This document shows, piece after piece, positions 43 through 51,698 of a DNA stretch of 64,000 nucleotides. The position numbers and the translations under genes were made by a program. Every line of letters starts with the position of its first letter. Positions within the stretch are counted from its first letter, which is position 1. The stretch is from NCBI RefSeq assembly GCF_024700885.2, contig NZ_CP117014.1, one strand, 5' to 3'. The notes under the pieces are model-generated. The model was not told the DNA's origin, ran no database searches, and was given only the letters and a program-made list of their open reading frames with translations. The DNA is from Escherichia coli (GTDB taxonomy: Bacteria; Pseudomonadota; Gammaproteobacteria; Enterobacterales; Enterobacteriaceae).

Positions 43-287
43 AGTGTAGTGACTCCTTGCTTTCGGAGCCGCCATCGACTGTTCCACGGTCTGGTGGCGG
101 CGCAATAAAGGCTGGAACACCGTGAGTCAACGGGGGCTTTTCAGCCACCTATATTGCACCGCCATAGGTATGACGGCGGCAATAATACGAAAAACTAAAC
201 AGTTTGTCTCAAAAAGTTGACCGGTGTGCCAATCGGTAGTGAATGTACATCGGAGAAATTTACAATTCAACTTAAAATGTTAGAAAA

Positions 288-866
288 CTAATTTATCGAT
301 TCAATCGCCATCTGATACAACGTCATTTCATCGGCATTGTGCCGTATGAAATCTGCTTTTCCGCCTATTTTTCCATCAGCATGAACAGGGACCAGCCAGG
401 GATATTGTTCTCGGACCTCGGCTGGCGCTGCGTACTGGTGGTGCCATTTACACAAAGGGAGGACATATTTATGCGCGTTCTCTGCCGTTCTCCCGAAGAT
501 ATGGTGCAGGGATACCACTGGGCTATGTTGCCCGTGAATATGGCAGGCAATGCAGGGGAGAGTACCTATAGCGGTCTGTATCCGGCGTTCATCGGCTGTG
601 AGTGATCTGCCTTTCAGGCCGCGTGACGTGCGTGTTTTTTTGGGCGGAGCGGATACAGCTTTATCTTTTCTCCGCTGTTCATATTGCTTTGCTTTTTCAT
701 TTTTCTTTTGCCGATATTCAGGCGATGCGGCCTTTTCTCTCGCTCGCTGCTGCTGGCGTTGAGCTTGTTGAAGGCGCTTTGCCCTTTGTTCCTCTCGCCA
801 GGCCGGGTCAGCCAATTTTTGCATGGCTTTTTGTCTCTGTTTCTCCCAATAACTCTGTTTCTGCAT
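288..866 (-). CDS. ref: Ref-like HNH endonuclease (recombination enhancement function)
   Basis: 192 aa; Cys/His motifs LPCIACHIHG, SLHHIFGRT, PLCKWHH, APAEVREQYPWLVPVHADG match my recollection of P1 Ref. Confidence 0.65.
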   Translation of the reverse strand: MQKQSYWEKQRQKAMQKLADPAWREEQRAKRLQQAQRQQQRAREKAASPEYRQKKNEKAKQYEQRRKDKAVSAPPKKTRTSRGLKGRSLTADERRIQTAIGTLPCIACHIHGQHSPVVSLHHIFGRTAENAHKYVLPLCKWHHQYAAPAEVREQYPWLVPVHADGKIGGKADFIRHNADEMTLYQMAIESIN

Positions 867-936
867 GATGGCAGTCTCTTACTTTTCAACGATTTTTCTA
901 TGATTGATCAAAACGGTTAGATATTCAAAATTGATT

Positions 937-944
937 TTCTAACA
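937..944 (+). promoter_or_regulatory. Operator-like motif TTCTAACA in the ref promoter region
   Basis: Lies within GTTAGA-N-ATTGATTTT-CTAACAC about 70 bp upstream of the ref start; same motif recurs at about 12 other promoters. Confidence 0.45.
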
Positions 945-1138: not shown

Positions 1139-1750
1139 ATGGTGAAACGTGTTTTGAAAATTTACATCGCGGGGCCGATGACTGGTTATCCAGATTACAA
1201 CCGTGCTGCGTTTAATGCGAAAGCGAGCGAGCTGATGGCTGAAGGGCATATCGTTCTGAATCCAGCTGTGTTACCTGGTGGCCTTTGTCAGAGTGAATAC
1301 ATGGATATTTGCCTGGCAATGGTGCGTTCTGCTGATGCGATCTACTTGCTCAATCGATGGGAGGAATCGATTGGTGCTCGTGCAGAGCACGCGCTGGCTG
1401 AAAAGCTGGGGCTGACTGTAATTTATGAGTCACCAACCAACATTGAATGCCAGGTTGCTCCGCATATTTACCGGGAACTGGTCAATGCACTGCGTGATAT
1501 CGCTGCTGTATATCACGGCACAGAACAGCTTCGTGAGCGTTTAGCCCATACCATTTCCTATTACCTGTCTTTATCTCATGAGCACAAGCTCCGCCAGAAG
1601 GTAATGATCAAATTTATCATGAGGTTATCGAAATCCCTGGCAAACGCCGATCCAAAGAATCCATTACCGAAAGAGGCAATGAATTACCTGAAGTCCTGCA
1701 ACGTTGTTTCTGAAGATGGCGTTCTTTTGGTTAGAAGGAGTTCTGCGTGA
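1139..1750 (+). CDS. DUF4406-like (nucleoside 2-deoxyribosyltransferase-fold) protein with a C-terminal module shared with the 8866-10386 protein
   Basis: KIYIAGPMTGYPDYNRAAF...VLNPA motif; C-terminal PHIYRELVNALRDIA..GTEQLRERL recurs as PHVYRELVNRLHDTA..GTQQLRERI. ATG at 1139 chosen over the upstream alternative start at 1112. Confidence 0.5.
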   Translation: MVKRVLKIYIAGPMTGYPDYNRAAFNAKASELMAEGHIVLNPAVLPGGLCQSEYMDICLAMVRSADAIYLLNRWEESIGARAEHALAEKLGLTVIYESPTNIECQVAPHIYRELVNALRDIAAVYHGTEQLRERLAHTISYYLSLSHEHKLRQKVMIKFIMRLSKSLANADPKNPLPKEAMNYLKSCNVVSEDGVLLVRRSSA

Positions 1751-1779
1751 GCTGGCGGGGATGGGGAAGGGCAGAAATC

Positions 1780-2064
1780 ATGATACTCCGCCAGTGCGCC
1801 GGAACTATGACGGTCGAGAGTATTGGGAAGCTGATCGGTCGTACCGGTGATGCCGTCAGGACTAAAGCGCGGGAGTTGGGGATCAGCATGATTCTGAAAG
1901 GAGACTTTCATCCGTCAGCCAAATTCCGGCAGAGCGATATAGAACTGGCGCGGCAGCTTCATCAGTGTGGTGTTCCCCGCCGTGAGATCGCGGAAAAACT
2001 CGAAATGCCCCTGGGCATGATTAATCAGTACGTTTATTTCGAAAGGAGAGTACATGAAGTCTGA
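1780..2064 (+). CDS. Small putative DNA-binding (HTH) protein
   Basis: ORF; segment TVESIGKLIGRTGDAVRTKARELGI is HTH-like. Start taken at the internal ATG with an RBS. Confidence 0.4.
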   Translation: MILRQCAGTMTVESIGKLIGRTGDAVRTKARELGISMILKGDFHPSAKFRQSDIELARQLHQCGVPRREIAEKLEMPLGMINQYVYFERRVHEV

Positions 2065-2557
2065 AGGTTTAACGCCAGCACAACTGGCAGAGCGTAACGC
2101 TGAGTATGTAACGGAAATTTCCCGACTTGAGAAAGCGTGTGCTGCGCTGGCGGCGGAGAATGCGAGACTGAATGCGATATGTGAGGATCGCCGCACGTTC
2201 ATTATGAATGGCGTGCAGCTTGGCTTTATCAAGGTGCCAACAGTGGAAATAGATCCAGCTCTCGAAACAATTCGTCTCGCCCTATCACCACAAAAAACCA
2301 CTCCTGCGACCGACACTTTCCTGGATGAAGTGAAGACTGAAGCACGCAAGGAGGGCGCTTACTTTGTGGCGAACAGGATGCTGGCTGCTTGGGAAGCTGG
2401 TTTTATTGATGATACTGCGAAGAACGCCGCGGATATTGCCCGGATGATTCTTACCTCTACTGAGTTTATGGCTAATGCGCGGGAAGGCGATTTTGACCGC
2501 TCATTCTCTGATGGCGTTCTCGAAGATATCGCCGAACAGCTTAGAAAAGGAAGGTAA
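2054..2557 (+). CDS. Ead/Ea22-like coiled-coil protein (paralog family member)
   Basis: ACAALAAENARL motif and C-terminal similarity to 5775-6488 (FLDEVKTEARKEGAYF / FLAEIRAEARNEGVNY); RBS AAGGAGAG. Confidence 0.5.
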   Translation: MKSEGLTPAQLAERNAEYVTEISRLEKACAALAAENARLNAICEDRRTFIMNGVQLGFIKVPTVEIDPALETIRLALSPQKTTPATDTFLDEVKTEARKEGAYFVANRMLAAWEAGFIDDTAKNAADIARMILTSTEFMANAREGDFDRSFSDGVLEDIAEQLRKGR

Positions 2558-2560
2558 ACA

Positions 2561-2809
2561 GTGAGTAATACCGCACGACTACAGCTTGGTTTTTCACCGC
2601 TATCAAAAACCATCGTGTTGGCAAAAATGCGTGACTTAGGGGATGGAACAAAACGTCGTGTTGGCAATGATCGCGGTCGTGATGTAACCAACGAGGCCGC
2701 TCAACTCCTCTGGCATCTGGTCATGGCAGAAGGCGGTGAAATTAATTGGGAGCTGGATGATGGTTCTCGCATGGTATTGAAGGCAGAAAAGCAGGAACCA
2801 CCACAGTGA
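2561..2809 (+). CDS. Hypothetical small protein
   Basis: ORF with GTG start and RBS, translationally coupled to neighbours. Confidence 0.35.
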   Translation: MSNTARLQLGFSPLSKTIVLAKMRDLGDGTKRRVGNDRGRDVTNEAAQLLWHLVMAEGGEINWELDDGSRMVLKAEKQEPPQ

Positions 2810-3081
2810 ATATCGACACCACGATAACGCTCGATACGGCCCTAAATACCGGTCTGGCACTTCTTGGTTGGCTTTACATCATGTCCCGTACCTGGCGATG
2901 GCTGGGTTCCATTTTCCTAAAAGAGTGGAAAAAACGGCGCAAACAGGAACTACGCCAGAAGGCATTAGAAGCGTTCTATGACGCATTTGAACTTAGCCGC
3001 ATTGAACCAGGCACAACAGCCAGAATAGCGACAAAAGGCGACCTGATGATAGTGATGTTCAGACAGGAGAAAACCAAATGA
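2806..3081 (+). CDS. Hypothetical small membrane protein
   Basis: ORF with hydrophobic stretch LNTGLALLGWLYIM; overlapping start/stop coupling. Confidence 0.35.
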   Translation: MNIDTTITLDTALNTGLALLGWLYIMSRTWRWLGSIFLKEWKKRRKQELRQKALEAFYDAFELSRIEPGTTARIATKGDLMIVMFRQEKTK

Positions 3082-3302
3082 CAGAACAGACGATGACAAA
3101 TCGCGAACTTGTTGATGCCGCGATTGAACTTGCTGGCGATTTTTATTCCATGATGGGGTACACGCATCGCCCAGGCTTCAAATATTGGGAGTCTCCGCAC
3201 CCGCAAGAGCAACGGGTATTTCAAATGGCCTGCCGCGCTTTTGAAGTTATTCGCGGTTCTGATGTGATGGACGCGGTTGCTGATTTGGAGGATGAAGAGT
3301 GA
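3078..3302 (+). CDS. Hypothetical small acidic protein
   Basis: ORF with ATG and RBS AGGAGA; coupled to neighbours. Confidence 0.35.
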   Translation: MTEQTMTNRELVDAAIELAGDFYSMMGYTHRPGFKYWESPHPQEQRVFQMACRAFEVIRGSDVMDAVADLEDEE

Positions 3303-3610
3303 ACACAATTAAAGAAATGCCGGTAGAACGTGATGAATATGGCTGCTGGACACATCCGGAGTATGAGAAGTTTTGCGCAGGTCGTGAATATATTTCCACT
3401 GAGGAATTTGACGCCTGGATGAAGGAAAATAATCTTCAGTGGACTATTCGCAGTATGGATGAAGATGATTTTGATCTGGACGCAGCTGGTCCCGATATTG
3501 CCGCCTGGGAACCGGAGCGACCAGAGGGTGAAGGCTGGTTTGTTGGCTCTATTCATGACACTGAAGATGGTCCGGTTTGTATCTGGCTGCGTGAGAAGGT
3601 TGCCGCATGA
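3299..3610 (+). CDS. Hypothetical small acidic protein
   Basis: ORF with GTG start and RBS GGAGGA. Confidence 0.35.
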   Translation: MNTIKEMPVERDEYGCWTHPEYEKFCAGREYISTEEFDAWMKENNLQWTIRSMDEDDFDLDAAGPDIAAWEPERPEGEGWFVGSIHDTEDGPVCIWLREKVAA

Positions 3611-3767
3611 CCCAGGCTCTGCATGAAGTGAATTTATATAGCCGTATTGATGGTTCTGGCTATAGAAACTAGACACGGGCGCGGTTTTTAGCGGAAATCT
3701 GACGCTAATGCAGGTGAAGGGAGGGCAGCTTAAAGTCTGATCAAATCATTTACGCACTCAAAATCAC

Positions 3768-3796
3768 GTTAGAACATTGATTTTAGTTTTCTAACA
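3768..3796 (+). promoter_or_regulatory. Operator-like inverted repeat GTTAGAA-N14-TTCTAAC overlapping a putative promoter
   Basis: Perfect 7-bp inverted half-sites 45 bp upstream of the 3839 start; contains the recurrent TTCTAACA motif. Confidence 0.45.
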
Positions 3797-3838
3797 TATT
3801 ATTTTACCGATCGGAACAAAACAGAGTCGGTATGCATT

Positions 3839-4834
3839 ATGAGTGCAATAATCACCCCATATGTCGTAAATGAAACTGGTGTGGCTGTCTTTCCTGTAGA
3901 TAAGCCCACCAGCAATTACATCGGCGCAGGACGCCGTTTTCTTATATCCCCATTGCCGCGTGAACAGGCTGAAAACACCCCTGATGGTGTCGTTGACCTG
4001 AATTATTCACTGGTTGCCAACCAGTCACTGGCACCCTTTTTTCAAAGTGAGCGCGTATTTAACGCGTTAGGTGGTGAGGATTCTCTCGTTCACTGGGTTA
4101 GCACCAACATTCACGATTGCCAGGTGCATGATAAGCGCGATTGCAGCCACCAGCTAACCACCCATTTCTATAACGGTTCTGCCGTTCGCCTGTGCTGGAA
4201 GCATGATGCGGAATACATGATGAAGGGATACGGCAAGCTGGAAGACCAACTGTCACTGAATCGCGCCAACTGGATTATGAACTGGGCTGCCAGCGAGTTA
4301 AAACTTCCGCCAGATCGCGATCTGAGCATGGTTGAACTCACCTTTTGGGCCATTCGCCGGAATCTTAAAGACGAACTGCCTGATGAAGCTGGTCGCATTG
4401 CATTTTGTCAGCCAAAAACTGAAATCCCTACCGGCACTCTGAAAGAGTCGGATATTACTTGGGAGCATAGTACCCGCGAGCTGGTGGATATTTCCGCAGA
4501 GCAGATCGTCAATCTGTCCGTCGATGAAGATTCTGGCCTCCTATATATGCGCCGTCCAAAAACCTTACTCGGAAAAAGCCCGGCTTATCTCCGGTTTGTG
4601 GTGTCTCGCCCGTGTGTAGGCTGCGGCGGCAAGGTTAATCACCCATTCATGTACCGCGCCCGCTCGTTAAACGAACACGACCGCTGGACTGTTCCTCTTT
4701 GCGATGACTGCGCCAGAAGCGCAGAAAACGATGTCCGGGCATGGGAAAAAGCACATGGCATACGCCTTTACGTAGCCGCTAACCAGCTTTTCGACTTCGC
4801 CATTGAGCGCGGAGTGATCACGTTCAATAACTGA
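3839..4834 (+). CDS. DUF968-like / HNH-like Cys-His protein
   Basis: 331 aa; C-terminal CVGCGG...HPFMYRARSLNEHDRWTVPLCDDCAR resembles the Ref-type Cys/His cluster. Confidence 0.5.
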   Translation: MSAIITPYVVNETGVAVFPVDKPTSNYIGAGRRFLISPLPREQAENTPDGVVDLNYSLVANQSLAPFFQSERVFNALGGEDSLVHWVSTNIHDCQVHDKRDCSHQLTTHFYNGSAVRLCWKHDAEYMMKGYGKLEDQLSLNRANWIMNWAASELKLPPDRDLSMVELTFWAIRRNLKDELPDEAGRIAFCQPKTEIPTGTLKESDITWEHSTRELVDISAEQIVNLSVDEDSGLLYMRRPKTLLGKSPAYLRFVVSRPCVGCGGKVNHPFMYRARSLNEHDRWTVPLCDDCARSAENDVRAWEKAHGIRLYVAANQLFDFAIERGVITFNN

Positions 4835-4847
4835 TGGGAGCAATGCA

Positions 4848-5141
4848 ATGAGTCAAGGTAATGGTGACGGAGCTGCAAAGTGCAGAATCTCCACTTGTTT
4901 GATTAATGACAAAAAAATAGAACCGTGCGCGGCGTTGGCACAATCTCTGGAGAAGGATGCTGAATACACGACGCGGAAAGGTCTGCTGAAATACAAAATC
5001 TATAACCATGAATTAATTCATTCACAAGACCTGATCATGCTGCGGTCTGGTGAATTTTCTAAATCGCCTATTCGAGTTTCATTTTGCCCATTCTGTGGTG
5101 AAAGTCTGAAAACGTGGGAAGCGGAGGCAACCAGTGAATAA
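4848..5141 (+). CDS. Small Cys-rich protein with C-terminal zinc-ribbon-like CPFCGE
   Basis: ORF with ATG and RBS; CxxC pairs. Confidence 0.35.
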   Translation: MSQGNGDGAAKCRISTCLINDKKIEPCAALAQSLEKDAEYTTRKGLLKYKIYNHELIHSQDLIMLRSGEFSKSPIRVSFCPFCGESLKTWEAEATSE

Positions 5142-5778
5142 CCGCTTTTACATGATGTGCTTGCGTGAAACTGTGGGTAATAACGCCTCATTCCATTGCC
5201 ATAACGGCAATGGTTACAGTTCTGATATCGATCGCGCTCATATTTACACGCTGGAAGAAGCCCAAAAAGCCTGGAATTGTGGGCGAGATATCGATCAGCC
5301 TGTTTGTGCCGATAGTGTGGATGCAATGGCTGTGTGGCACGTTGATTGCCAGTACATCCCTACAGAAAGCCTGATTGAGTCAGATTGCACTGAGTATGTG
5401 GCCTACAAAAAAGGTAGCTGGAACGGCAACGATGTTTACTGGCTTCAACACGGTGGATTGCCAACAGATGACTTCAGTAAAGCGACCATCTTTAGCTTCG
5501 CCAACAAAAACGAACCAGGAATAGTTTGGTTGCCATTTTCCATTGCTGATGCAGCAAAGCGCCGGACGTTCAATATCAATAACTTTAACCGCAGAACAAT
5601 GGTTCAGGGCGCAGGTTTGGTCATGCCTGACTGGTTGAAAGAGCAGAACAGAAGAAAGAAGTCGCGAAGCGGGAAGGTGCGTTGGAATTGTCCGCATTGC
5701 GGAAAAATAACCTGGCAGTACAGCCCATATGATTTTGAAGGCTGTCGTGATTACAACTGTGAAGGATGGCGAGAATGA
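5134..5778 (+). CDS. Hypothetical protein with C-terminal zinc-ribbon-like motif
   Basis: 214-aa ORF; WNCPHCGK...CEGW near the C-terminus; start uncertain (GTG 5134 or ATG 5152). Confidence 0.35.
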   Translation: MNNRFYMMCLRETVGNNASFHCHNGNGYSSDIDRAHIYTLEEAQKAWNCGRDIDQPVCADSVDAMAVWHVDCQYIPTESLIESDCTEYVAYKKGSWNGNDVYWLQHGGLPTDDFSKATIFSFANKNEPGIVWLPFSIADAAKRRTFNINNFNRRTMVQGAGLVMPDWLKEQNRRKKSRSGKVRWNCPHCGKITWQYSPYDFEGCRDYNCEGWRE

Positions 5779-6488
5779 CAATTGACTATCAGGTACTGCG
5801 TGAGGCGGCAGAAAAGGCAACACCAGACGAATGGGTCGCATTTATTTCGACGGATACTGGTACTTATGCGGTGCACACGCCCGGTGATGAACGATGTGAA
5901 GACGTTATCAAATGGACCGGCTTTGATGGACAGAAAAATGCAGAGAACAACGCTCGTTATGTTGCCGCGTTCAACCCAAAGGTTGCACTGGAGCTTCTTG
6001 GTGAAATTAAGCGCCTGGAGGACACAAATATTGATGCTATGTGTCGAATTGCAGAGCTTGAGACTAATCTCGCGGCGCTGGCGGCGGAGAATGAACTGGC
6101 TCGTAAGGCAGTTCAGGCATTCTGCGATGTTGTTGGCGACAACACCGAGGTTATCGCTGAGGAGGTTGGGCGAGATGGCGTTCTGGTTATTTTGGAGGCC
6201 ATGAAGGCAACAGGAAATATGCCAGCCACCGATGCTTTTCTGGCTGAAATTCGTGCGGAAGCACGCAACGAGGGAGTTAACTATACCGCCAGCCGTCTTG
6301 CTGCTGCGTTCAATCACGGATTTATCAATAAGTCTTTGCGTGAAGTTTTCGACGTTACACGCATGATTTTGTCAGCGAAAGAAGAGTTGGCTAATGAAGC
6401 GCATCCGATTGATGGCCTGTCTGGTGAATATGCGGAGAAATCCCTTGAAGAATGGGCGGAACAGATTCGCAAAGGAGCTGACAAGTGA
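5775..6488 (+). CDS. Ead/Ea22-like protein (paralog of 7423-8178 N-terminus and 2054-2557 C-terminus)
   Basis: N-terminal MTIDYQVLREAAEKAT...AAFNPKVALELL matches 7423 ORF (MSKINYQALREAAEKAT...AAFNPKVALALL); LAALAAENE coiled coil. Confidence 0.5.
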   Translation: MTIDYQVLREAAEKATPDEWVAFISTDTGTYAVHTPGDERCEDVIKWTGFDGQKNAENNARYVAAFNPKVALELLGEIKRLEDTNIDAMCRIAELETNLAALAAENELARKAVQAFCDVVGDNTEVIAEEVGRDGVLVILEAMKATGNMPATDAFLAEIRAEARNEGVNYTASRLAAAFNHGFINKSLREVFDVTRMILSAKEELANEAHPIDGLSGEYAEKSLEEWAEQIRKGADK

Positions 6489-6895
6489 AGAAGATGATTT
6501 TTATCGCGGCATTGTTGGTGAATATCCAACAAGTGCATGCTTCAGCAGCTATTGTAGCCTCTACCGCCGCGACTACGGCTGCTGTAGCTGCTGCGAACTC
6601 TGCGAATATCGCAAACCAACAGGCACAGCGTGCTGCTAATGCATCAGCCAGCGTTCACTCAATCACCATTAAGAGCAGTAAGCAAAATCTGGGATTCATA
6701 ACGTGCGGCACGCGTTCTAATGAAGCTGTAGGTTCACTTGGATGTACGGTATATGGGGGTAGTGAGAATAGAGAAATTCCATGGAAAACGTGGCCCGGAT
6801 ACGTTCTTGGCTCGAAGCTCCCGGCCAGTTATGAAGTAAACGCCGTATCGTTTGATCACTATAACGGCGTGGCAACGGTCTATTTTGCATATTGA
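6485..6895 (+). CDS. Small secreted/periplasmic protein (signal peptide)
   Basis: N-terminal MKKMIFIAALLVNIQQVHA followed by an Ala/Thr-rich region; no lipobox cysteine. Confidence 0.4.
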   Translation: MKKMIFIAALLVNIQQVHASAAIVASTAATTAAVAAANSANIANQQAQRAANASASVHSITIKSSKQNLGFITCGTRSNEAVGSLGCTVYGGSENREIPWKTWPGYVLGSKLPASYEVNAVSFDHYNGVATVYFAY

Positions 6896-6902
6896 GGCCC
6901 GC

Positions 6903-7436
6903 ATGAAATTCTCCAAATTTTCTGAGTTGGTGAATCGTATTTTGTTGAATCGTATTTTGTCCAACAACCACAGCCATCGTCGCGATATGGATGTAACGAT
7001 CGTTGTTCATTCGCCTGGCAGCATTGGTTCAACACCCTCAGTTGAGGTTCAGTCAATTCACGCTGGTTTTGATTGGGATTCCGGGAAAGTGCTGATTTTC
7101 CCAGCACAGCCACTGACCACTCTAACACCAGAACAGATTACTGATATTACTGATAGTGTGCGCAAAGGTCAGTCCTGGCACGCATATCAGGAATACAAGA
7201 AGCATAAAGAGCAGTTGGAAAAATTATCGATTGAACTTGATACCGCAAAACAGCGCATTGCAGAGCTGGAGAGCAATCGCGCGGCGCTGGCGGCGGAGCA
7301 TGGTATTCAGATTGCAATAAATGAACTGCTTGCTCTGGCCCCGCGTCTGGATAAACGAGCGGTGGATGCACTCTCTGTGGCTGTGGAGCACCTGTGTAAA
7401 CTGATTAAGAAGGAGGCAGTCAGTGAGCAAAATTAA
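6903..7436 (+). CDS. Ead/Ea22-like coiled-coil protein
   Basis: ELESNRAALAAEHG motif; ATG at 6903 with RBS chosen over the upstream alternative start. Confidence 0.4.
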   Translation: MKFSKFSELVNRILLNRILSNNHSHRRDMDVTIVVHSPGSIGSTPSVEVQSIHAGFDWDSGKVLIFPAQPLTTLTPEQITDITDSVRKGQSWHAYQEYKKHKEQLEKLSIELDTAKQRIAELESNRAALAAEHGIQIAINELLALAPRLDKRAVDALSVAVEHLCKLIKKEAVSEQN

Positions 7437-8178
7437 TTACCAGGCACTGCGTGAGGCGGCAGAGAAAGCAACGTGGGGAGACTGGGACTCATATAAACCA
7501 CACCGTGGCGCACGTGGTTATAAGGTCCGACTAAGTGGTCAGGCCATTGCGCAACACGTTCTGAAAAACAACGCTGAATTTATTGCTGCCTTTAATCCAA
7601 AGGTTGCTTTGGCATTACTGGATGAACTGGAAAGAAACCAGCAATACATCAAACGCCGCGACCAGAAGAACGAGGATATTGCTCTTACGGTTGGGAAGCT
7701 GAGAGTTGAGCTTGAGGAAGTAAAACAACACGCTGAAGAATTATCCGAAACCAAGGCTGTTCGTAACCAATGGCGGCCAGATATTTGCCCAATAACCGGA
7801 CGTGCATTTTTCATGTGGATTGAGCATCCAACATTGGGAAATGTGCCGACATATGGTGGCCCATTAGATAGTTACACCATTCCAACAAAGGACGGTGACG
7901 GTGAGTTTTCATGTGAGCGTTACGATCATGATTTTGGCGGTTGGGTAGAAAGCGAATGTCTTGGGTTATATCTGATTGATGATAGAGAACAATGCAGGGT
8001 CTACGAACTGGAGGAGCGCGTTAAGGAACTGGATGCTCGGGAAATATCGCTCCCGGAACGTAGCAGCATGCTTCATCGAACAGATTTTCACGATGATTAC
8101 CAAACGGTAATGGCATACAAAGTTTCTGAAGTCATCGATGCAATCCGCGCTACTGGCATTCGCATCAAAGGAGAGTGA
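7423..8178 (+). CDS. Ead/Ea22-like protein
   Basis: GTG start with RBS AAGGAGG; N-terminal paralogy to 5775-6488. Confidence 0.45.
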   Translation: MSKINYQALREAAEKATWGDWDSYKPHRGARGYKVRLSGQAIAQHVLKNNAEFIAAFNPKVALALLDELERNQQYIKRRDQKNEDIALTVGKLRVELEEVKQHAEELSETKAVRNQWRPDICPITGRAFFMWIEHPTLGNVPTYGGPLDSYTIPTKDGDGEFSCERYDHDFGGWVESECLGLYLIDDREQCRVYELEERVKELDAREISLPERSSMLHRTDFHDDYQTVMAYKVSEVIDAIRATGIRIKGE

Positions 8179-8179
8179 G

Positions 8180-8590
8180 ATGAACGCTATAACCAAAGAA
8201 CGTATCAAATTATTCATTAAAAATCCGCTTGATAACGGACTTACTCGTGGCGAACAAATGGAACTGGCACGAATTGCTCTGGCATCGCTGGAAGCAGAGG
8301 CAGTTATGTTCTGTATATCAGGACAAAATGTAGATTCAGAAGAACATGTATCAACCAGCAAAGCGGTTGTTGATGCCTGGGTTGAAGAATGGAATCAGGT
8401 TGACGGAAGTCCTGGCGAACCACTGTACAAAACTATGCCACTCTACTATCACGCTGCCTTGCCAGCGCCGGTAGTGCCGGATGAAATGTATTGGCAGGAT
8501 GCGCCAGTTGAAGGCAGCAGCAAAGCGGCTGCATACGCTACAGGCTGGAACGCCTGCCGCGCCGCTATGCTTCATGGGAAAGGAGAGTGA
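8180..8590 (+). CDS. Hypothetical protein, N-terminal paralog of the 8866-10386 protein
   Basis: First 40 aa (MNAITKERIKLFIKNPLDNGLTRGEQMELARIALASLEA) nearly identical to 8866 ORF; about 90% DNA identity over roughly 120 bp. Confidence 0.45.
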   Translation: MNAITKERIKLFIKNPLDNGLTRGEQMELARIALASLEAEAVMFCISGQNVDSEEHVSTSKAVVDAWVEEWNQVDGSPGEPLYKTMPLYYHAALPAPVVPDEMYWQDAPVEGSSKAAAYATGWNACRAAMLHGKGE

Positions 8591-8591
8591 T

Positions 8592-8855
8592 ATGGCAACT
8601 TTAACAAAAAAAGAACGGGCATGGTTGAACGAATTACAGGACGTTCTTGATCGCTGTCCATCACCGAAAAAAATTGGTTTTTACACCATTGGCGATAAAA
8701 GCATTTACCTGTATGACCTGCGCCGCATGGATGAAATCATGGAGACTCTTGATAATCGTTCGTCGATGGATTGGTGTGTTGCTGTTCATGATATGAATGC
8801 AGGGTTTGATGAAAAGATTTTGTTCCCCTCATCAGTTGAAAGCACTGCGGGTTAA
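8592..8855 (+). CDS. Hypothetical small protein
   Basis: ORF starting MATLTKKERAWLNEL at an ATG directly after the previous stop. Confidence 0.35.
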   Translation: MATLTKKERAWLNELQDVLDRCPSPKKIGFYTIGDKSIYLYDLRRMDEIMETLDNRSSMDWCVAVHDMNAGFDEKILFPSSVESTAG

Positions 8856-8865
8856 GGAGTAACAC

Positions 8866-10386
8866 ATGACCACTATTACCAAAGAACGTATTGAATTGTT
8901 CATTAAAAATCCGCTTGAAAACGGGCTTACCCGTGGTGAACAAATGGAACTGGCACGGATTGCGCTGGCATCGCTGGAAGCAGATCCAGTTAAACGAGTT
9001 AACTCAGATCAGATGCGCCGAGTCTGCTTAGAAGCTAATCGCCATTTAGATAAATATGACGCGATGGCGAAAGAGGTAAATAAGTTGCTTGGACGCATCG
9101 CCCCGCCAGCGCCGGTAGTGCCGGAAGAAGCAACTCCGGAAAACGTAGAAATGCTCTCTGGCTATGTTTCCACGTACAAATTAACCGATAGCGAGCGCGA
9201 TATTGCTGCCGAAATATGGAACGCCTGCCGCACCGCCATGCTTCAGTCCGGAAACTTTCGGGAAAGCAAGAATTCGTCAACCAATAATTTTCGGGAAATC
9301 GCGGAAACGTCAACCAACTATCCGGTAATTCCTAGTGAGGTGTTGTCAGCAATCCTGAAGTTTGCCAGAGTTCGTGCCGATTTCGATGATTTTGACGGTG
9401 ACAGGCGAGGTATCGGTGATTGTCTGGATGAGGCCGAGCAAGAGCTTATCGTTACCATTAACAAATATGCCAGTCAGTTGGCAGCAGAACCGATAGCGAC
9501 TAATGACGTTCGAGAGCAAACAGCCGTTCCGCCAATACAGGCTGATGTCGCGCAAGCAATTGAAAATCTCAAGCAGAAGTTAGTGGAATGCAATCGCTAT
9601 AACTACTGCGCAGATGCAGTTAAAGGCGTAGAGGATGCCAGCCGCGTCTTGGCACTCCAAAATCAAAATATGTCAGCACCGGTAACGCCGGAGGCCATTG
9701 AAAACGCAATTGAATATATCCGCAGTATCGCTTTTCACATCGATGAAGACGATTACCACGGCAAGCATATTGCGTATTTCATGCGACAAGCATTGGCCTG
9801 GCTGGAAGGGCATTCATGCAGCGACGACAGGCTGGGTAAGGCCGACAATCAACCCGCATCTGGTAACCAGTCTGCCGAATCCAATCGCGGTAATGAGTGG
9901 ACCGGCAATCCTGATATTGATAACGCCATCATCATGCTCGACCGCATAGATACGGCGGAAAGTTGCGATGATGACCGTATTGAGGCCGTTAAGGCTGTGT
10001 TGCGTAGACTGGCAGGCAACTATCCGGATATTCCGGATAGTTCGGTGCCAGCGCCAGGAAAGGGCGTCACCGGTGAACGTATCCGCATTAAGCCGCATGT
10101 TTATCGCGAACTGGTTAACCGTCTCCACGATACAGCGATCAAGTGTGCTGGCACCCAGCAATTACGAGAAAGAATTAGCCGTGTTTTGGGCGACGTTATT
10201 ACACCAGATCATCATAAACAAGCCGAGAAAAGTGGCCTGGAAAGGTGTCGCCTTGAGGCGGCATTAAACATTAAGCCGGGGCATACGCTTGGCATTATTG
10301 ATGCACTATTGGTTCATAAGATGGCCAGGGCTTTATTGCCGCTGGTGGCTGAAAAGCATGAGGTGGACCATGCCAACGAAAGCTGA
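8866..10386 (+). CDS. Hypothetical 506-aa modular protein
   Basis: N-terminal module shared with 8180 ORF; C-terminal PHVYRELVNRLHDTAIKCAGTQQLRERI module shared with 1139-1750 protein; RBS AAGGAG. Confidence 0.45.
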   Translation: MTTITKERIELFIKNPLENGLTRGEQMELARIALASLEADPVKRVNSDQMRRVCLEANRHLDKYDAMAKEVNKLLGRIAPPAPVVPEEATPENVEMLSGYVSTYKLTDSERDIAAEIWNACRTAMLQSGNFRESKNSSTNNFREIAETSTNYPVIPSEVLSAILKFARVRADFDDFDGDRRGIGDCLDEAEQELIVTINKYASQLAAEPIATNDVREQTAVPPIQADVAQAIENLKQKLVECNRYNYCADAVKGVEDASRVLALQNQNMSAPVTPEAIENAIEYIRSIAFHIDEDDYHGKHIAYFMRQALAWLEGHSCSDDRLGKADNQPASGNQSAESNRGNEWTGNPDIDNAIIMLDRIDTAESCDDDRIEAVKAVLRRLAGNYPDIPDSSVPAPGKGVTGERIRIKPHVYRELVNRLHDTAIKCAGTQQLRERISRVLGDVITPDHHKQAEKSGLERCRLEAALNIKPGHTLGIIDALLVHKMARALLPLVAEKHEVDHANES

Positions 10387-10654
10387 ATTACAGGTGCGCG
10401 TAGATGAGCTTGAAAAAGAGAACGCGAGCCTCAAAAAAATGCTGTCGCGGGCGGAAAGGGAATTATCAGGCAAATTATTGCCAGAAGAACTGCCACCAGC
10501 AGATATACCTGATCGAGTGTCCTGGTGGATGAAGTATTTCCGTGCACCGTGGGAGGCGTTTTGGTGCTACGACCATCGCAGATGGTGTGATGAGCTTGAT
10601 AGCAGTTTCCCCTATTTTGCAGAAGGGAACTCTTGCCCTGAATGTAGGCGTTAA
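10370..10654 (+). CDS. Small Cys-motif protein (tandem paralog 1)
   Basis: Ends WCYDHRRWCDELDSSFPYFAEGNSCPECRR; paralogous to next ORF. Confidence 0.4.
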   Translation: MPTKAELQVRVDELEKENASLKKMLSRAERELSGKLLPEELPPADIPDRVSWWMKYFRAPWEAFWCYDHRRWCDELDSSFPYFAEGNSCPECRR

Positions 10655-10959
10655 TGATGACCGGCGAGCTTTATTTTAAAATGGCACGGGAGCGGCGTGT
10701 GCATCTGGATCGGATATTTCATCTCCAGAAGAGAGTAGAAGAACTGGAACGTCGTCTGAACTGTTATCCTGTTGATATGGTGTCTGCAATACCGCCGATT
10801 CCAATAGAAATGCAGATCCGCCTATGGATGGAAGAATATGGAATGCCGTGGGAGATATTTTTCTGCTTCGACCATAAACAGTGGGTAGATGAGCTGGATA
10901 ATAGTTTCCCATATTTCACAGAGAACACATGCCCAGTATGCAGGAAGAACGGAATATGA
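10654..10959 (+). CDS. Small Cys-motif protein (tandem paralog 2)
   Basis: Ends FCFDHKQWVDELDNSFPYFTENTCPVCRK. Confidence 0.4.
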   Translation: MMTGELYFKMARERRVHLDRIFHLQKRVEELERRLNCYPVDMVSAIPPIPIEMQIRLWMEEYGMPWEIFFCFDHKQWVDELDNSFPYFTENTCPVCRKNGI

Positions 10960-11480
10960 CAAAATTTGGAAAGCTGGAAGCTCATTTGCTAACTCGCAAC
11001 TACCGCCATGATATACACCCATATAGACAGTGGATCGATGAAAGCGAAGGAGTAGTTACATTCCCTCTCTACAGGTTTGATGGGATGTTGGCTGGGTATC
11101 AGACATATAGACCAGGTGCACCTAAGCAGCATAGCAATCCGAAGATGGCCCGGTATTTCACGCGATCACACGGCAGACAGTTACTTTGGGGAACCTATCT
11201 TCCTTTAAAAGATGGCCCAATATGGATAACTGAGTCTATTTTTAAGAGCGCAGCTGTACACAACGCGGGCGGCAATTCGTGGGCGCTGTTAGGTTCAACT
11301 TTCTCCGCAGGATTACGCCGTCAACTTGCGATGCTGCCGTATGACTTTCGCGTAATAGGTGACAATGATGCGGCTGGTGAATCACTTGTGAAGTCTTTCG
11401 GAAAAGGTTTTGTGGCCCCGGATCTTGACGAGCTACAACCACATGAAGTGTCTCATTTGATTTTTAGCCATAGCCAATAA
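10956..11480 (+). CDS. Stand-alone Toprim-domain protein
   Basis: ESIFKSAAVHNAG ... VIGDNDAAGE resembles the Toprim conserved Glu and DxD motifs; ATGA overlap with the previous stop. Confidence 0.45.
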   Translation: MTKFGKLEAHLLTRNYRHDIHPYRQWIDESEGVVTFPLYRFDGMLAGYQTYRPGAPKQHSNPKMARYFTRSHGRQLLWGTYLPLKDGPIWITESIFKSAAVHNAGGNSWALLGSTFSAGLRRQLAMLPYDFRVIGDNDAAGESLVKSFGKGFVAPDLDELQPHEVSHLIFSHSQ

Positions 11481-11690
11481 GCATCTCTCCCCTTTGAGGT
11501 CACAATTAGTGGCCTTAAACAATGTGTTTTCTACCTCGATTTAGCCTTTATTATCGTTTTGCATTTCTCTAATCCGGGCAACGAGGTTACGCTGATTCGT
11601 TGGTGATGAATAGTAGCAAAGCGCACAAAATCATCTGCGGTGGTTGATGTACGTAACGCGTTTGCACCAAATGTGTCTCTTTAATGTATA

Positions 11691-11727: not shown

Positions 11728-12117
11728 ATGGGCTTCCCTTCTCCTGCGGCGGACTATGTTGAAAGCCGAATTTCTCTTGATCAGCAACTAATCAGGCATC
11801 CATCAGCGACATACTTCATGCGGGCGGCAGACAGCCATCACCGTGAGGGAATATTGCAGGGTGCTTTGCTGGTGGTTGATTCTTCGCTTACTCCAGTTGA
11901 TGGTTCGCTGCTTGTGTGCGCTATGGAGGGAGAATATCGCGTAAAAAGATACCGGAAGTATCCGCGCCAGCACCTGGAGGATTTAAGCACCGGGAAGAAA
12001 GAGGCGTTACCAGTAGATGACGATGGTTACACGGGTAGTAATGCTGTTTTTGGTGTGATCACCCACATTATCAATGACGCCAGGGGCGGTGAATTTGATG
12101 ATAGTCCTGCTATATGA
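11728..12117 (+). CDS. humD: HumD (UmuD-prime homolog, S24 peptidase-like)
   Basis: 129 aa starting MGFPSPAADYVE; P1 synteny humD-phd-doc; LexA box upstream. Confidence 0.65.
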   Translation: MGFPSPAADYVESRISLDQQLIRHPSATYFMRAADSHHREGILQGALLVVDSSLTPVDGSLLVCAMEGEYRVKRYRKYPRQHLEDLSTGKKEALPVDDDGYTGSNAVFGVITHIINDARGGEFDDSPAI

Positions 12118-17098: not shown

Positions 17099-17106
17099 GT
17101 GTTAGA
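17099..17106 (-). promoter_or_regulatory. Operator-like motif (TGTTAGAA) upstream of the 17041-13420 operon
   Basis: Same motif family as 937-944 and others. Confidence 0.4.
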
Positions 17107-17114
17107 AATTTAAT

Positions 17115-18143
17115 TTACGAATCCATCAGGCGGCTATTAGCCCCCACAGACACGCCGCCACGGCGAAGATACCGCATAAGTGTTTCCGGTTTCTTCCAGG
17201 TTCCTTCCTGCATGATCTCCACCATAGACACCTGCTTTTCAGCCATATCAATAGCGGCCCCGACGCGTGCACTATGCCCGGTCCACGTCCGGTATCTTCC
17301 TTTGTTTGGCGTAGCATCTCTTTTATTCAGCAACACCCAGGCGTCGCTGAATATTTTCTCCATTGCAGGTGCAGTAAGGGGCGTTGTCGTGATCCTGGCC
17401 TTATTGCTACGGTGTATCGGCGGGAACAGCACTGCGTCAGGATGTTCGCGAAGCCCGGAAACATCCAGCCAGTCATTCAGCACAGCGGTAGTGCGACGGG
17501 AAAGCACCTTATCAAGCCCGGCGGCGGTCGTTATTGTCTTCGTGTGTGAAATATGTAGCGTGACAGTGTCACCTGTTTGATCCAGATCTCCTACACGAAT
17601 ACGCGAGATTTCCGACATACGCATCAGCGTATTGTATGCAACAAAGAGAAAAGCCCGGTTGCGCAGGTCCACCAGCCGTTCTGACCTGGACAACAGGACG
17701 TCGAGCAGTTTCAGATCGTCCCACCGAAGCGGTATAGCCTGGCCTGTTCGTTCGCCTTTTTCAGTTGCCGCTTCGCGCCGGATGCGCCGCATAGCCAGAG
17801 AAACACTTTTATCATCCGAAAGTGGCGGAAGGCCACAATGCGAAAGCAGCATATTCAGCATGGCGTAGTGCTTATCAATGGTGGTCGAAGCCAGATCGGC
17901 ATCATGCAGCTGAAGAAAATACTCGCGGGCCATTTCTGGTGAGATCGGAAACCAGGCAAGCTGGCGAGCGTGACACCAGCGCGCCCATGAATGAAACACC
18001 AACCGGAGGTCGCGCAGAGTATTCGGCGCATAAGCCCCCTGGTCATTCATGAACCGCATAAAGTTTTCTGCAGCCTCCTGGTACTCTTTGCCAATGTTGC
18101 GCAGAAAACCACCGGAGCTGCCAGAGATAATTAATTCACTCAT
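17115..18143 (-). CDS. dre: Cre-family tyrosine recombinase (Dre-like)
   Basis: 342 aa; AVSLAMRRIRRE, AYNTLMRMSEISRIRVGDL, WTGHSARVGAAIDMA parallel recalled Cre (AVSLVMRRIRKE, AYNTLLRIAEIARIRVKDI, WSGHSARVGAARDMA) at roughly 40% identity; adjacent rox-type site. Confidence 0.85.
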   Translation of the reverse strand: MSELIISGSSGGFLRNIGKEYQEAAENFMRFMNDQGAYAPNTLRDLRLVFHSWARWCHARQLAWFPISPEMAREYFLQLHDADLASTTIDKHYAMLNMLLSHCGLPPLSDDKSVSLAMRRIRREAATEKGERTGQAIPLRWDDLKLLDVLLSRSERLVDLRNRAFLFVAYNTLMRMSEISRIRVGDLDQTGDTVTLHISHTKTITTAAGLDKVLSRRTTAVLNDWLDVSGLREHPDAVLFPPIHRSNKARITTTPLTAPAMEKIFSDAWVLLNKRDATPNKGRYRTWTGHSARVGAAIDMAEKQVSMVEIMQEGTWKKPETLMRYLRRGGVSVGANSRLMDS

Positions 18144-18426: not shown

Positions 18427-18521
18427 TTTTCTAAAATTGATGACAAAAAATCACAGTTCGATCCTTTACTCACTCTGTTATTCGACATAAATTTGTCATA
18501 GTAATTTTATGTTAGAAAACT
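18427..18521 (+). promoter_or_regulatory. Two operator-like motifs upstream of the 18538 gene
   Basis: TTTTCTAAAATTGATGAC at 18427-18444 and TGTTAGAAAACT at 18510-18521. Confidence 0.4.
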
Positions 18522-18537
18522 AAATCGAGTAGGAATA

Positions 18538-22864: not shown

Positions 22865-22972
22865 TAATCCCCCGGGCAGGAAATGACCGAGGGGATGATA
22901 ATGAGAATGTTAAAACTGTATAGACTGGTAAAAAGATGAATGTATTAGAAAATTAATACTAAATATCTAATG

Positions 22973-28131: not shown

Positions 28132-28212
28132 TGCTATTCCCGTTACTTTGTTAAATTATTTTTCTAACATATTTTATTAGTTTGATGACAGTATCGAAAG
28201 ATGCAATAAACA

Positions 28213-38755: not shown

Positions 38756-39168
38756 AGTTACGGCCTCACTAACAGGTTTAACAACCTGCCACCCGCTGTC
38801 AAACAGGTGGCAGGACGTGACAGGGTTGACAGACTGGCGTTAGTGAAACCAGCAGGCCGAAGCCTCCCCATCACGCCCCACCATAATTCGGGCGTAACGC
38901 GGTTTACGGACACAAAAATACCGCAATATCGGAAATCTGCGGTTGTCCGCACTAACATTCAGGCTGTCAAACCCGGTCGCAGAATTTGCTACGACGGCAT
39001 GAATATAAGCCTGAAAACATGGAAGATCAACTAAAAATTTCAGCAATGGATGACTTCAGTCGATGATGCAGATCATACATTCCGTTTTAGAAACAGCAAA
39101 TTAATTTTCTAACATAAATAATCGGCCGAGCATTTTCCGATCATTGGGATGTTTTGTAGACACACAGG

Positions 39169-40304: not shown

Positions 40305-40312
40305 TGTTAGAA
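40305..40312 (-). promoter_or_regulatory. Operator-like motif upstream of the RepL-like operon
   Basis: TGTTAGAA about 175 bp upstream of the 40131 start. Confidence 0.35.
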
Positions 40313-40331
40313 ATTTAACTTAACAAGGCGA

Positions 40332-51048: not shown

Positions 51049-51125
51049 GATGCGCCGCGCGATAAATGCACTCTATCTTGTGCGATAAATGGCATCCACG
51101 CGGCGTTTCATTATTTGAAAAAGAA

Positions 51126-51698
51126 TTACATTTCAGGTTGCGTTATGACAGTCCCAACAGGGTGATAGCGGTAGATCGTTGACAGTCCAATATCATAGAT
51201 AATTGCCAGCCGCTTTCTGTCATACCCTTTCTGGAGCAATCTTGCGATCTGCTCATGCTGCTCCTTCGTCAGTTTCGGGCGACGTCCTCCAACTCTTCCT
51301 TGTGCTCGCGCAGCAGCCAGTCCTGCCAGCGTGCGCTCAACTATCAGTTCACGCTCCATTTCTGCCAGTGCACCCATCATATGAAAAAAGAACCTTCCCA
51401 TCGGAGTGCTGGTATCGATTGAATCCGTCAGACTGCGAAAATTGACACCTTTTGCGCGTAACTCTTCTGTGAGAGCAATGAGGTGTTTCATTCTTCTACC
51501 CAACCGATCCAGCTTCCAGACCACCAATGTATCCCCTCTTTTAAGGCACTTTAAAGCGCGTTTCAGGCCTGGTCGTTCCGACTTGGTTCCGCTCATTTTG
51601 TCCTCAAAAATCTGTTCACATCCTGCGCACATTAATGCATTGCGTTGCAAATCTGTGTTTTGGTCATTTGTTGACACACGTATGTAGCCAATCAGCAT
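51126..51698 (-). CDS. cin: Serine DNA invertase (Cin/Gin/Hin family)
   Basis: MLIGYIRVSTNDQNTDLQ...LVVWKLDRLGR...C-terminal HTH (GLSTIYRY); about 190 aa from ATG at 51698; adjacent invertible segment. Confidence 0.85.
   Translation of the reverse strand: MLIGYIRVSTNDQNTDLQRNALMCAGCEQIFEDKMSGTKSERPGLKRALKCLKRGDTLVVWKLDRLGRRMKHLIALTEELRAKGVNFRSLTDSIDTSTPMGRFFFHMMGALAEMERELIVERTLAGLAAARAQGRVGGRRPKLTKEQHEQIARLLQKGYDRKRLAIIYDIGLSTIYRYHPVGTVITQPEM

Follow-up and report, generated by a model that had tools for sequence, protein, structure and literature searches.

The genes and repeats described here lie in a 64,000-nucleotide (nt) stretch of Escherichia coli contig NZ_CP117014.1 (GCF_024700885.2), referred to below as the window, most of which is closely related to phage D6. 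Between 12000 and 64000 the window is 97-98% identical to D6 over 70-74% of the length. This D6-like stretch is collinear with D6, includes the pac, c1, portal and tail genes, and places the element in the D6 subgroup, P1g2. D6 has been assigned to subgroup 2 of the P1 group (PMC10879196). Phages P1 and P7 have only small pieces in common with the window at the DNA level. A first-pass annotation of positions 1139-10386 had spoken of a P1-family backbone; the name is right in the broad sense, and D6-type is the more exact label. Next to this backbone lies a block at 1139-11480 with about 20 closely spaced plus-strand open reading frames (ORFs, named here by their first position in the window), and most of the stop/start pairs between them overlap by 1-17 nt. 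Table 1 lists the features of the block and its flanks. With a probability of about 0.85, the block is a long plus-strand operon of non-essential accessory genes on a D6-type plasmid prophage, with a gene pool that corresponds to the ea/exo-xis and nin regions of lambdoid (P22-like and Shiga toxin, Stx) prophages and with protein modules exchanged by recombination.

Table 1. Genes, repeats and sites in and around the block (aa, amino acids; AF2, AlphaFold2; pLDDT, predicted local distance difference test)
Feature	Position	Strand	Evidence and remarks
Ref-like nuclease gene	288-866	minus	flank before the block
Operator-like 16-nt motif AATTGATTTTCTAACA	929-944	plus	195 nt upstream of first block gene; overlaps weak -35/-10 (TTGATT 931-936, TAATAT 953-958)
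DUF4406 protein, 203 aa	1139-1750	plus	PF14359 E=1e-33, 116 bits (cut-off 22), aa 7-96; PHIYRELVN…GTEQLRERL module aa 105-154 (nt 1451-1600)
Small DNA-binding-like protein	1747-2064	plus	start overlaps preceding stop; phrog_323 'transcriptional regulator' E=8e-28; 'DNA-binding protein' in relatives
Ea22-type protein without Pfam N-domain	2054-2557	plus	short N-terminus, coiled coil EISRLEKACAALAAEN, C-terminal domain as in ORF 5766; phrog_14548, phrog_614, phrog_368
Coiled-coil-coding DNA repeat D2	2114-2162, 6045-6093, 7254-7302	plus	copies 67-88% identical
ppp-like metallophosphoesterase remnant	3607-3838	plus	559-nt internal deletion, junction 3669/3670, from comparison with relative L003
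Ead/Ea22-like protein, 240 aa	5766-6488	plus	PF13935 73.6 bits; phrog_368 E=3e-70; Ead_Ea22 N-domain, coiled coil, C-terminal domain as in ORF 2054
177-aa protein	6903-7436	plus	phrog_6026 N-domain (E=1e-54), coiled coil RIAELESNRAALAAEH, short tail; phrog_368 E=1e-34; holds D2 copy 3
Ead/Ea22-like protein, 251 aa	7423-8178	plus	PF13935 104.5 bits; C-terminal half differs; homolog of P7 Upf88.3, 81% identical
Repeat D4	8167-8200, 8579-8612, 8853-8886	plus	covers ribosome-binding site and start codon of each of three adjacent genes
EaA-type N-domain short form, 136 aa (ITKERI… module)	8180-8590	plus	phrog_5117, phrog_60, phrog_660; BLASTP to ORF 8866 E=3e-26
87-aa protein	8592-8855	plus	phrog_1714 E=5e-50; ribosome-binding site and initial codons shared, as repeat D4, with both flanking genes
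506-aa EaA/Upf89.5/PmgU-like mosaic	8866-10386	plus	ITKERI N-module aa 1-130, middle modules, PHVYRELVN aa 407-455 (nt 10084-10230)
CxxC mini-protein 1, 94 aa	10370-10654	plus	phrog_3797 E=1e-58; leucine-zipper-like helix and C-x2-H-x18-C-x2-C knuckle
CxxC mini-protein 2, 101 aa	10654-10959	plus	tandem paralog of mini-protein 1, E=6e-23; AF2 pLDDT 83.6
Toprim/primase-like protein	10956-11480	plus	last block gene; phrog_849 E=6e-54; 'toprim domain-containing protein' in relatives
Terminator-like hairpin	11493-11519		3' of last block gene; terminator scan
humD-like gene	11728-12117		flank after the block
Motif AATTaaTTTTCTAACA sites	929-944 (+), 278-293 (-), 17100-17115 (-), 18510-18525 (-), 22943-22958 (-)		
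Motif AATTaaTTTTCTAACA further sites	28154-28169 (+), 39099-39114 (+), 40305-40320 (-), 51112-51127 (-)		

Shared modules are found in several of these proteins. An all-against-all BLASTP of 22 ORFs followed by pairwise BLASTP with composition-adjusted statistics, the kind of check that the first-pass annotation had suggested, gave significant scores for the proposed paralogies. For example, the products of ORFs 8180 and 8866 are 44% identical over 147 columns (E=3e-26). Their first 40 residues, earlier described as near-identical, agree at 35 of 40 positions, and the homology reaches further than had been noticed, to about 130 aa, by way of two more conserved islands, PAPVVP(D/E)E and WNACRxAML. 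Beyond the N-module the alignment is gapped and identity falls below 30%. At the DNA level, 8168-8306 and 8854-8992 form a repeat with 86% identity. The first 42 codons of the two genes have a synonymous divergence (dS) of 0.32 and a nonsynonymous divergence (dN) of 0.066 (dN/dS about 0.2), and their downstream parts are barely alignable; therefore, the two parts of these genes have different histories. Likewise, the predicted link between the DUF4406-like protein and the 506-aa protein through a PH(I/V)YRELVN...GT(E/Q)QLRER module holds, with 44% identity between the two copies and E=1e-10. The first of these proteins belongs to DUF4406 by its Pfam match, and its C-terminal 107 aa fall outside the PF14359 domain. 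The two CxxC mini-proteins are 42% identical (E=6e-23). Such a tandem pair had been claimed and is real; however, it is located at 10370-10959, past the 10386 end of the region then described. ORFs 4848 and 5134, the only adjacent CxxC-bearing ORFs inside that region, were considered as the pair and rejected (E=3). From these alignments, it appears that 'paralog families' exist here because several of the block's genes carry the same modules.

The four proteins previously listed as Ead/Ea22-like coiled-coil proteins are a more complex case. ORFs 5766 and 7423 pass the Pfam gathering cut-off of 27 bits for PF13935 (Ead_Ea22) and so keep that name. In contrast, ORFs 2054 and 6903 have no Pfam hit, PF13935 included, and are tied to the group by the coiled coil, by a C-terminal domain and by phrog_368, a heterogeneous family that all four proteins match (E from 1e-23 to 3e-70). 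ORFs 2054 and 5766 have a C-terminal domain in common (39% identity over 93 aa, E=4e-18). For ORFs 6903 and 5766 the common part is the coiled coil only, 57% identical over 30 aa (E=2e-3) and encoded by a 49-nt DNA repeat with 88% identity. A four-way alignment resolves the set into a three-module network, not a single family: the N-domain occurs in ORFs 5766 and 7423, the coiled coil RIAELExNxAALAAE in ORFs 2054, 5766 and 6903, and the C-terminal domain in ORFs 2054 and 5766. The sequences and this alignment are consistent with a layout of N-region, putative coiled coil and separate C-terminal domain. A three-part architecture with variable C-terminal domains, including DUF551, has been reported for Ea22 (PMC10834534).

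The same modules are found in other combinations in related elements. Screens of 50,697 phages, 72,556 plasmids and 5,426 complete E. coli genomes turned up no record in the three collections that covers at least 80% of the block; the best covers 74% at 99.2% identity. Thirteen relatives (L001-L013) were mapped by blastn and BLASTP, and 6-13 of them carry reciprocal chimeras of the modules seen in the window. In plasmid pKOr024_2, ORF 3067-3549 joins the N-terminus of ORF 2054 to a C-terminus that is 96.6% identical to aa 153-240 of ORF 5766, whereas the window's own ORF 2054 has a C-terminus just 39% identical to that of ORF 5766. Another gene of that plasmid, ORF 8420-8884, combines the N-domain of ORF 5766 with the tail of ORF 6903, with the junction on repeat D2, and a further one has the N-domain of ORF 6903 (92%) with a different C-terminus. 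In five relatives the segment 6222-7302, which comprises the C-terminus of ORF 5766, ORF 6485 and the N-domain of ORF 6903, is placed between window segments that end at 2172 and start at 2141. Thus, two copies of the coiled-coil repeat mark the places between which a three-gene cassette has moved. In plasmid pB2C_96 the N-domain of ORF 7423 (aa 1-98) is 98% identical and attached to another C-terminus. The 506-aa protein behaves in the same way: D6 orf104 differs from it at the N-terminus but is 95% identical to its aa 220-506, while identity to P7 Upf89.5 is 63% over aa 1-274 and 97% over aa 383-494. In three database proteins (P0281, P0292 and P0293), parts of the two tandem CxxC genes are joined into hybrids. 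ORF 6485-6895, the middle gene of the relocated cassette, encodes a 136-aa protein that matches phrog_8805 and has a signal-peptide-like N-terminus, MKKMIFIAALLVNIQQVHA.

Much of this gene pool is lambdoid. The segment 7619-10042 of the window is 98.8% identical to part of a chromosomal P22-like prophage of E. coli EC5931 (L014 9001-11247). In that prophage the matching segment lies between erf/anti-RecBCD and xis-int, which makes it the 'ea' region of the early-left operon; several of the matching genes there are labelled as pseudogene fragments by the Prokaryotic Genome Annotation Pipeline (PGAP). Stx phages have pieces in common with the block at 94-97% identity, and another lambdoid phage carries homologs in the nin position. 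Pieces of 7400-11500 occur in 2,949 of the 5,426 complete E. coli genomes; of the places concerned, 5,789 are chromosomal and 698 are on plasmids. The GenBank notes for D6 also describe ORFs of this region as similar to genes of ES18, phiV10, 933W, N15 and others. There has been recent exchange between the block and a lambdoid prophage. Two further statements of the first-pass annotation are thus sustained: that this is a lambdoid-type accessory region, by the P22-like match, the Stx pieces and the mostly chromosomal copies, and that domain shuffling is active, by the chimeras, the CxxC hybrids, the lack of a record matching at least 80% of the block, and the positions of the breakpoints.

Alignment ends from the relatives were merged into 49 breakpoint clusters and compared with the share of the region by a binomial test. 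Clusters fall on intra-locus repeats in 22 of 49 cases (expected 13%, P=7e-8), at gene boundaries in 10 of 49 (expected share 9.8%, P=0.02) and at either in 30 of 49 (expected 21%, P=1.5e-9). D2 is a recurrent junction, with breakpoints at 2141 and 2163-2173 in nine relatives, within 6045-6093 in four, and at 7257 and 7302 in eight. Four relatives have breakpoints near aa 98 of ORF 7423. Several points weigh against reading the block as a product of module exchange. The enrichment on repeats is partly circular, as BLAST alignments begin and end at conserved modules, and breakpoints are shared by descent among relatives, so that independent events number fewer than 49. The exchange events are deduced from sequence comparison. 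No Pfam, NCBIfam or Protein Data Bank (PDB) match assigns a function to the shared modules, and AF2 models the 506-aa protein with low confidence. Finally, early repressor-controlled expression is proposed solely from a motif and from where homologs lie in other phages. Stronger evidence than the enrichment test comes from the rearranged gene orders, in which identity exceeds 92% on both sides of the junctions. ORF 8866 also holds a tandem 33-nt direct repeat at 9253-9317 (NFRESKNSSTN/NFREIAETSTN), and breakpoints at 9315 and 9332 in four relatives lie at or just past its 3' end.

The PHxYRELVN module is much more widespread than the block. When the C-terminal half of the DUF4406 protein was the query of a word-index search, 10 hits came back, all DUF4406-type relatives; the breadth of the module was seen only by exhaustive profile search. 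When a profile built from alignment A1 was searched against 1.84 billion representatives, 1,367 proteins, each a cluster at 50% identity, were found at E<=1e-3 and 357 at E<=1e-10. The consensus is lppHxyRELVNxLRDtAvkyxGtqQLRErisrtL, about 45-50 aa in length with about 14 near-invariant positions, of which H, R, E, N, D, Q, R and E are polar. Of the top 150 hits, 76 carry the module at the C-terminus, 57 internally and 13 at the N-terminus, in 6 it stands alone, and the ITKERI N-module is also present in 29. Most hits have no Pfam domain; where there is a partner, it is DUF551 (7), DUF3850 (4), Ead_Ea22 (3), ASCH (3), DUF5490 (2) or, once each, a dATP/dGTP pyrophosphohydrolase, DUF4406, a Rv2179c-like exoribonuclease or DUF1382. 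The genes around two distant members form comparable blocks on one strand, which include Ead_Ea22, DUF968, P1 Lpa-like and ParM genes. Searched as isolated modules, PHxYRELVN and ITKERI have no Pfam match at E<=10, NCBIfam has no match for 10 key ORFs, and no PDB sequence matched the PHxYRELVN profile or any of ORFs 8866, 1139, 5766 and 7423. AF2 models the 506-aa protein as all-helical with low confidence (mean pLDDT 49), its helices split by disordered linkers, and in this model PHxYRELVN folds as a hairpin of two helices (aa 410-426 and 433-445, pLDDT about 65). PHxYRELVN is a widespread helical module that lacks a Pfam model, with ITKERI as a frequent partner; this is a mildly new point, and the two unmodelled modules deserve curated families.

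The 506-aa protein itself illustrates what such mosaics do to annotation. Its matches to the PHROG families fall on separate segments. ORF 8866 has more than 4,590 database relatives with alternative C-termini, DUF551 among them, and many keep the first 78% of the protein and then continue into DUF551; the exact 506-aa combination is rare, with one cluster of 7 members at 100% identity. The name 'dTDP-6-deoxy-L-hexose 3-O-methyltransferase' carried by some relatives was rejected, as Pfam, NCBIfam and PDB sequence matches give it no support. The names 'putative morphogenetic protein', also on ORF 8866 relatives, and 'antitoxin PHD', on a CxxC mini-protein (L005 12336-12620), are likewise without support from these sources. 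Such names on the ORF 8866 relatives (P0001-P0047) and on the CxxC protein look like propagated misannotations. Module mosaicism explains the unstable automatic annotation, in which such genes are called 'methyltransferase', 'morphogenetic protein' or 'antitoxin PHD' or are marked as pseudogene fragments.

A different emphasis is that the modules are kept mainly by function, as common docking or oligomerisation interfaces for one target or for mixed oligomers, and that recombination is a by-product. This is compatible with module exchange and is a possibility worth keeping, though on the unlikely side. The near-invariant polar residues of PHxYRELVN, its many unrelated partners (from DUF551, DUF3850/ASCH and Ead_Ea22 to the dATP/dGTP pyrophosphohydrolase, DUF4406 and the exoribonuclease) and the dN/dS of about 0.2 in the N-module of ORFs 8180 and 8866 would all fit. 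So would lambda Ea22, a tetramer in which a coiled coil is combined with a C-terminal domain of its own (PMC10834534). However, the PHxYRELVN module has no known binding partner or structure, no PDB or Pfam relative was found for it, and its AF2 hairpin is only moderately confident. A stronger form of the idea, rather doubtful at present, is that the PHxYRELVNxLRDxA…GTxQLRERL two-helix module is an unrecognised widespread domain, a common docking or oligomerisation handle, often partnered by ITKERI, that brings unrelated small enzymes to one host or phage target. If so, its cargo would include a nucleoside-deoxyribosyltransferase-like DUF4406, a MazG-like dNTP pyrophosphohydrolase, ASCH, an exoribonuclease and DUF551.

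In-situ tandem duplication with divergence inside the element, in which no module passes between genes or genomes, is improbable. It would suit the CxxC pair, which is adjacent and fairly evenly diverged over its C-terminal 55 aa, and ORFs 8180 and 8866, which are only 686 nt apart. Nevertheless, identity along the pairs is uneven, as in the N-module and remainder of ORFs 8180 and 8866, and ORF 5766 has only its N-domain in common with ORF 7423 and only its C-domain with ORF 2054. The near-identity of part of the block to a chromosomal P22-like prophage is not expected from duplication in place, which is largely refuted by the chimeras, for relatives show the same modules recombined at 92-98% identity. 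That the composition of coiled-coil or low-complexity sequence, and not homology, accounts for the similarities, as the short ORF 5766-6903 match and weak bZIP and scaffold Pfam hits to the coiled-coil parts might hint, is very improbable given composition-adjusted E-values of 1e-10 to 3e-26 for the other pairs, coiled-coil copies 88% identical over 49 nt of DNA, the match of ORF 6903 to phrog_368, and a PHxYRELVN profile with 357 representatives at E<=1e-10 and its set of near-invariant residues.

Under module exchange, the block probably evolved as follows. The proteins are strings of short, semi-independent modules: the Ead_Ea22 N-domain, the coiled coil, alternative C-terminal domains, the ITKERI N-module, the PHxYRELVN two-helix module and a CHCC zinc-knuckle-like tail. 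Module-coding DNA of 49-139 nt, which is 86-88% identical between copies and far closer to co-resident prophages, would offer a substrate for homologous recombination, and the conserved ribosome-binding-site/start-codon junctions of three genes at 8167-8886 would offer another. Recombination within the element, and also with lambdoid prophages in the same cell, would then yield chimeric genes, deletions and relocated cassettes. The pathway might depend on RecA or be supplied by phages, through the adjacent Ref nuclease or the Erf/Red proteins of co-resident prophages. The coiled coils would serve as oligomerising scaffolds for exchangeable C-terminal domains, by analogy with what has been proposed for lambda Ea22, which is pro-lysogenic and whose C-terminal domain differs in Stx phages (PMC10834534).

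Expression would presumably be that of an early, repressor-controlled operon, from a promoter with the operator-like site at 929-944. The 16-nt motif AATTaaTTTTCTAACA has 9 sites in the window at <=3 mismatches, with 1.68 expected, and none of 100 shuffles reached 9. The P1 C1 operator consensus gave no hits in the window at <=3 mismatches, which speaks against operators of the P1 type, and in a simple scan for promoters the sequence upstream of 1139 gave none. The motif at 929-944 may be a candidate operator for a D6-type C1 repressor.

In an alignment of 16 sequences of the CxxC mini-proteins (A3), C71, H74, C93 and C96 are invariant, as for the ligands of a zinc knuckle or ribbon, and metal binding is predicted. 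The AF2 model (pLDDT 83.6) shows two helices, of which the N-terminal one is long, and a small knuckle. Foldseek with this model gave 0 hits in the PDB, and a BFVD search found only an uncharacterised homolog from Klebsiella phage LASTA. A word-index search with one CxxC protein returned 14 hits at 61-99% identity. Plasmid pB2C_96 carries a 271-aa ORF (L004 15467-16282) in which a segment like the ORF 8866 tail (70%, aa 456-492) is combined with a CxxC-like segment (37%), which suggests a fusion across the 8866/10370 gene boundary. The ppp-like gene has been reduced to a 21-aa stub in the window and the same deletion is found in pB2C_96; the gene is intact in D6, L003 and L005-L009.

Mosaic blocks of the ea/nin type, variable Ea22 and EaA architectures and variable gene repertoires in the P1 group are already well known, and this block is an ordinary, well-documented example of them. 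High variability of P1-like gene repertoires has been reported (PMC10879196). The block is a clean case of shuffling at the level of domains as well as genes, and it shows that genes flow directly between lambdoid prophages of the chromosome and a phage-plasmid of the P1/D6 type, involving pieces that are present in more than half of the complete E. coli genomes.

One of the closest known counterparts is the variable block between ref and hot/humD in D6 and other P1-group phage-plasmids. It has the same flanks and the same first genes (DUF4406, DNA-binding protein, DUF4752 and DUF968). However, D6 spans only 44% of the block and the best plasmid 74%, and the phosphatase gene that is intact in D6 is deleted here. 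For the 506-aa protein, the counterparts are P7 Upf89.5, D6 orf104 and P22 EaA (PmgU-like), with segments at 63-97% to Upf89.5 and 95% to orf104 over aa 220-506, together with the many DUF551 proteins that share the N-terminal 78% of ORF 8866; in contrast to these relatives, the combination found here is rare.

Lambda Ea22 and P22 Ead resemble the proteins of the block in that ORFs 5766 and 7423 pass the Pfam cut-off, in a sequence layout consistent with the three-part architecture (PMC10834534), and in that a P22-like prophage carries homologs in its ea region on the PL side. They differ in that ORFs 2054 and 6903 lack the Pfam N-domain and in that the genes here are on a plasmid prophage and not beside xis-int. 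The C-terminal domains here match neither the solved lambda Ea22 domain nor any PDB sequence.

Lambdoid phages evolve in a modular, mosaic fashion, with exchange at gene boundaries and at short conserved sequences. The block resembles them in having junctions at both, repeat D4 being an example. Unlike that pattern, many of its junctions fall inside genes, where the coiled coil and other linkers separate the domains, so that domains are swapped as well as genes.

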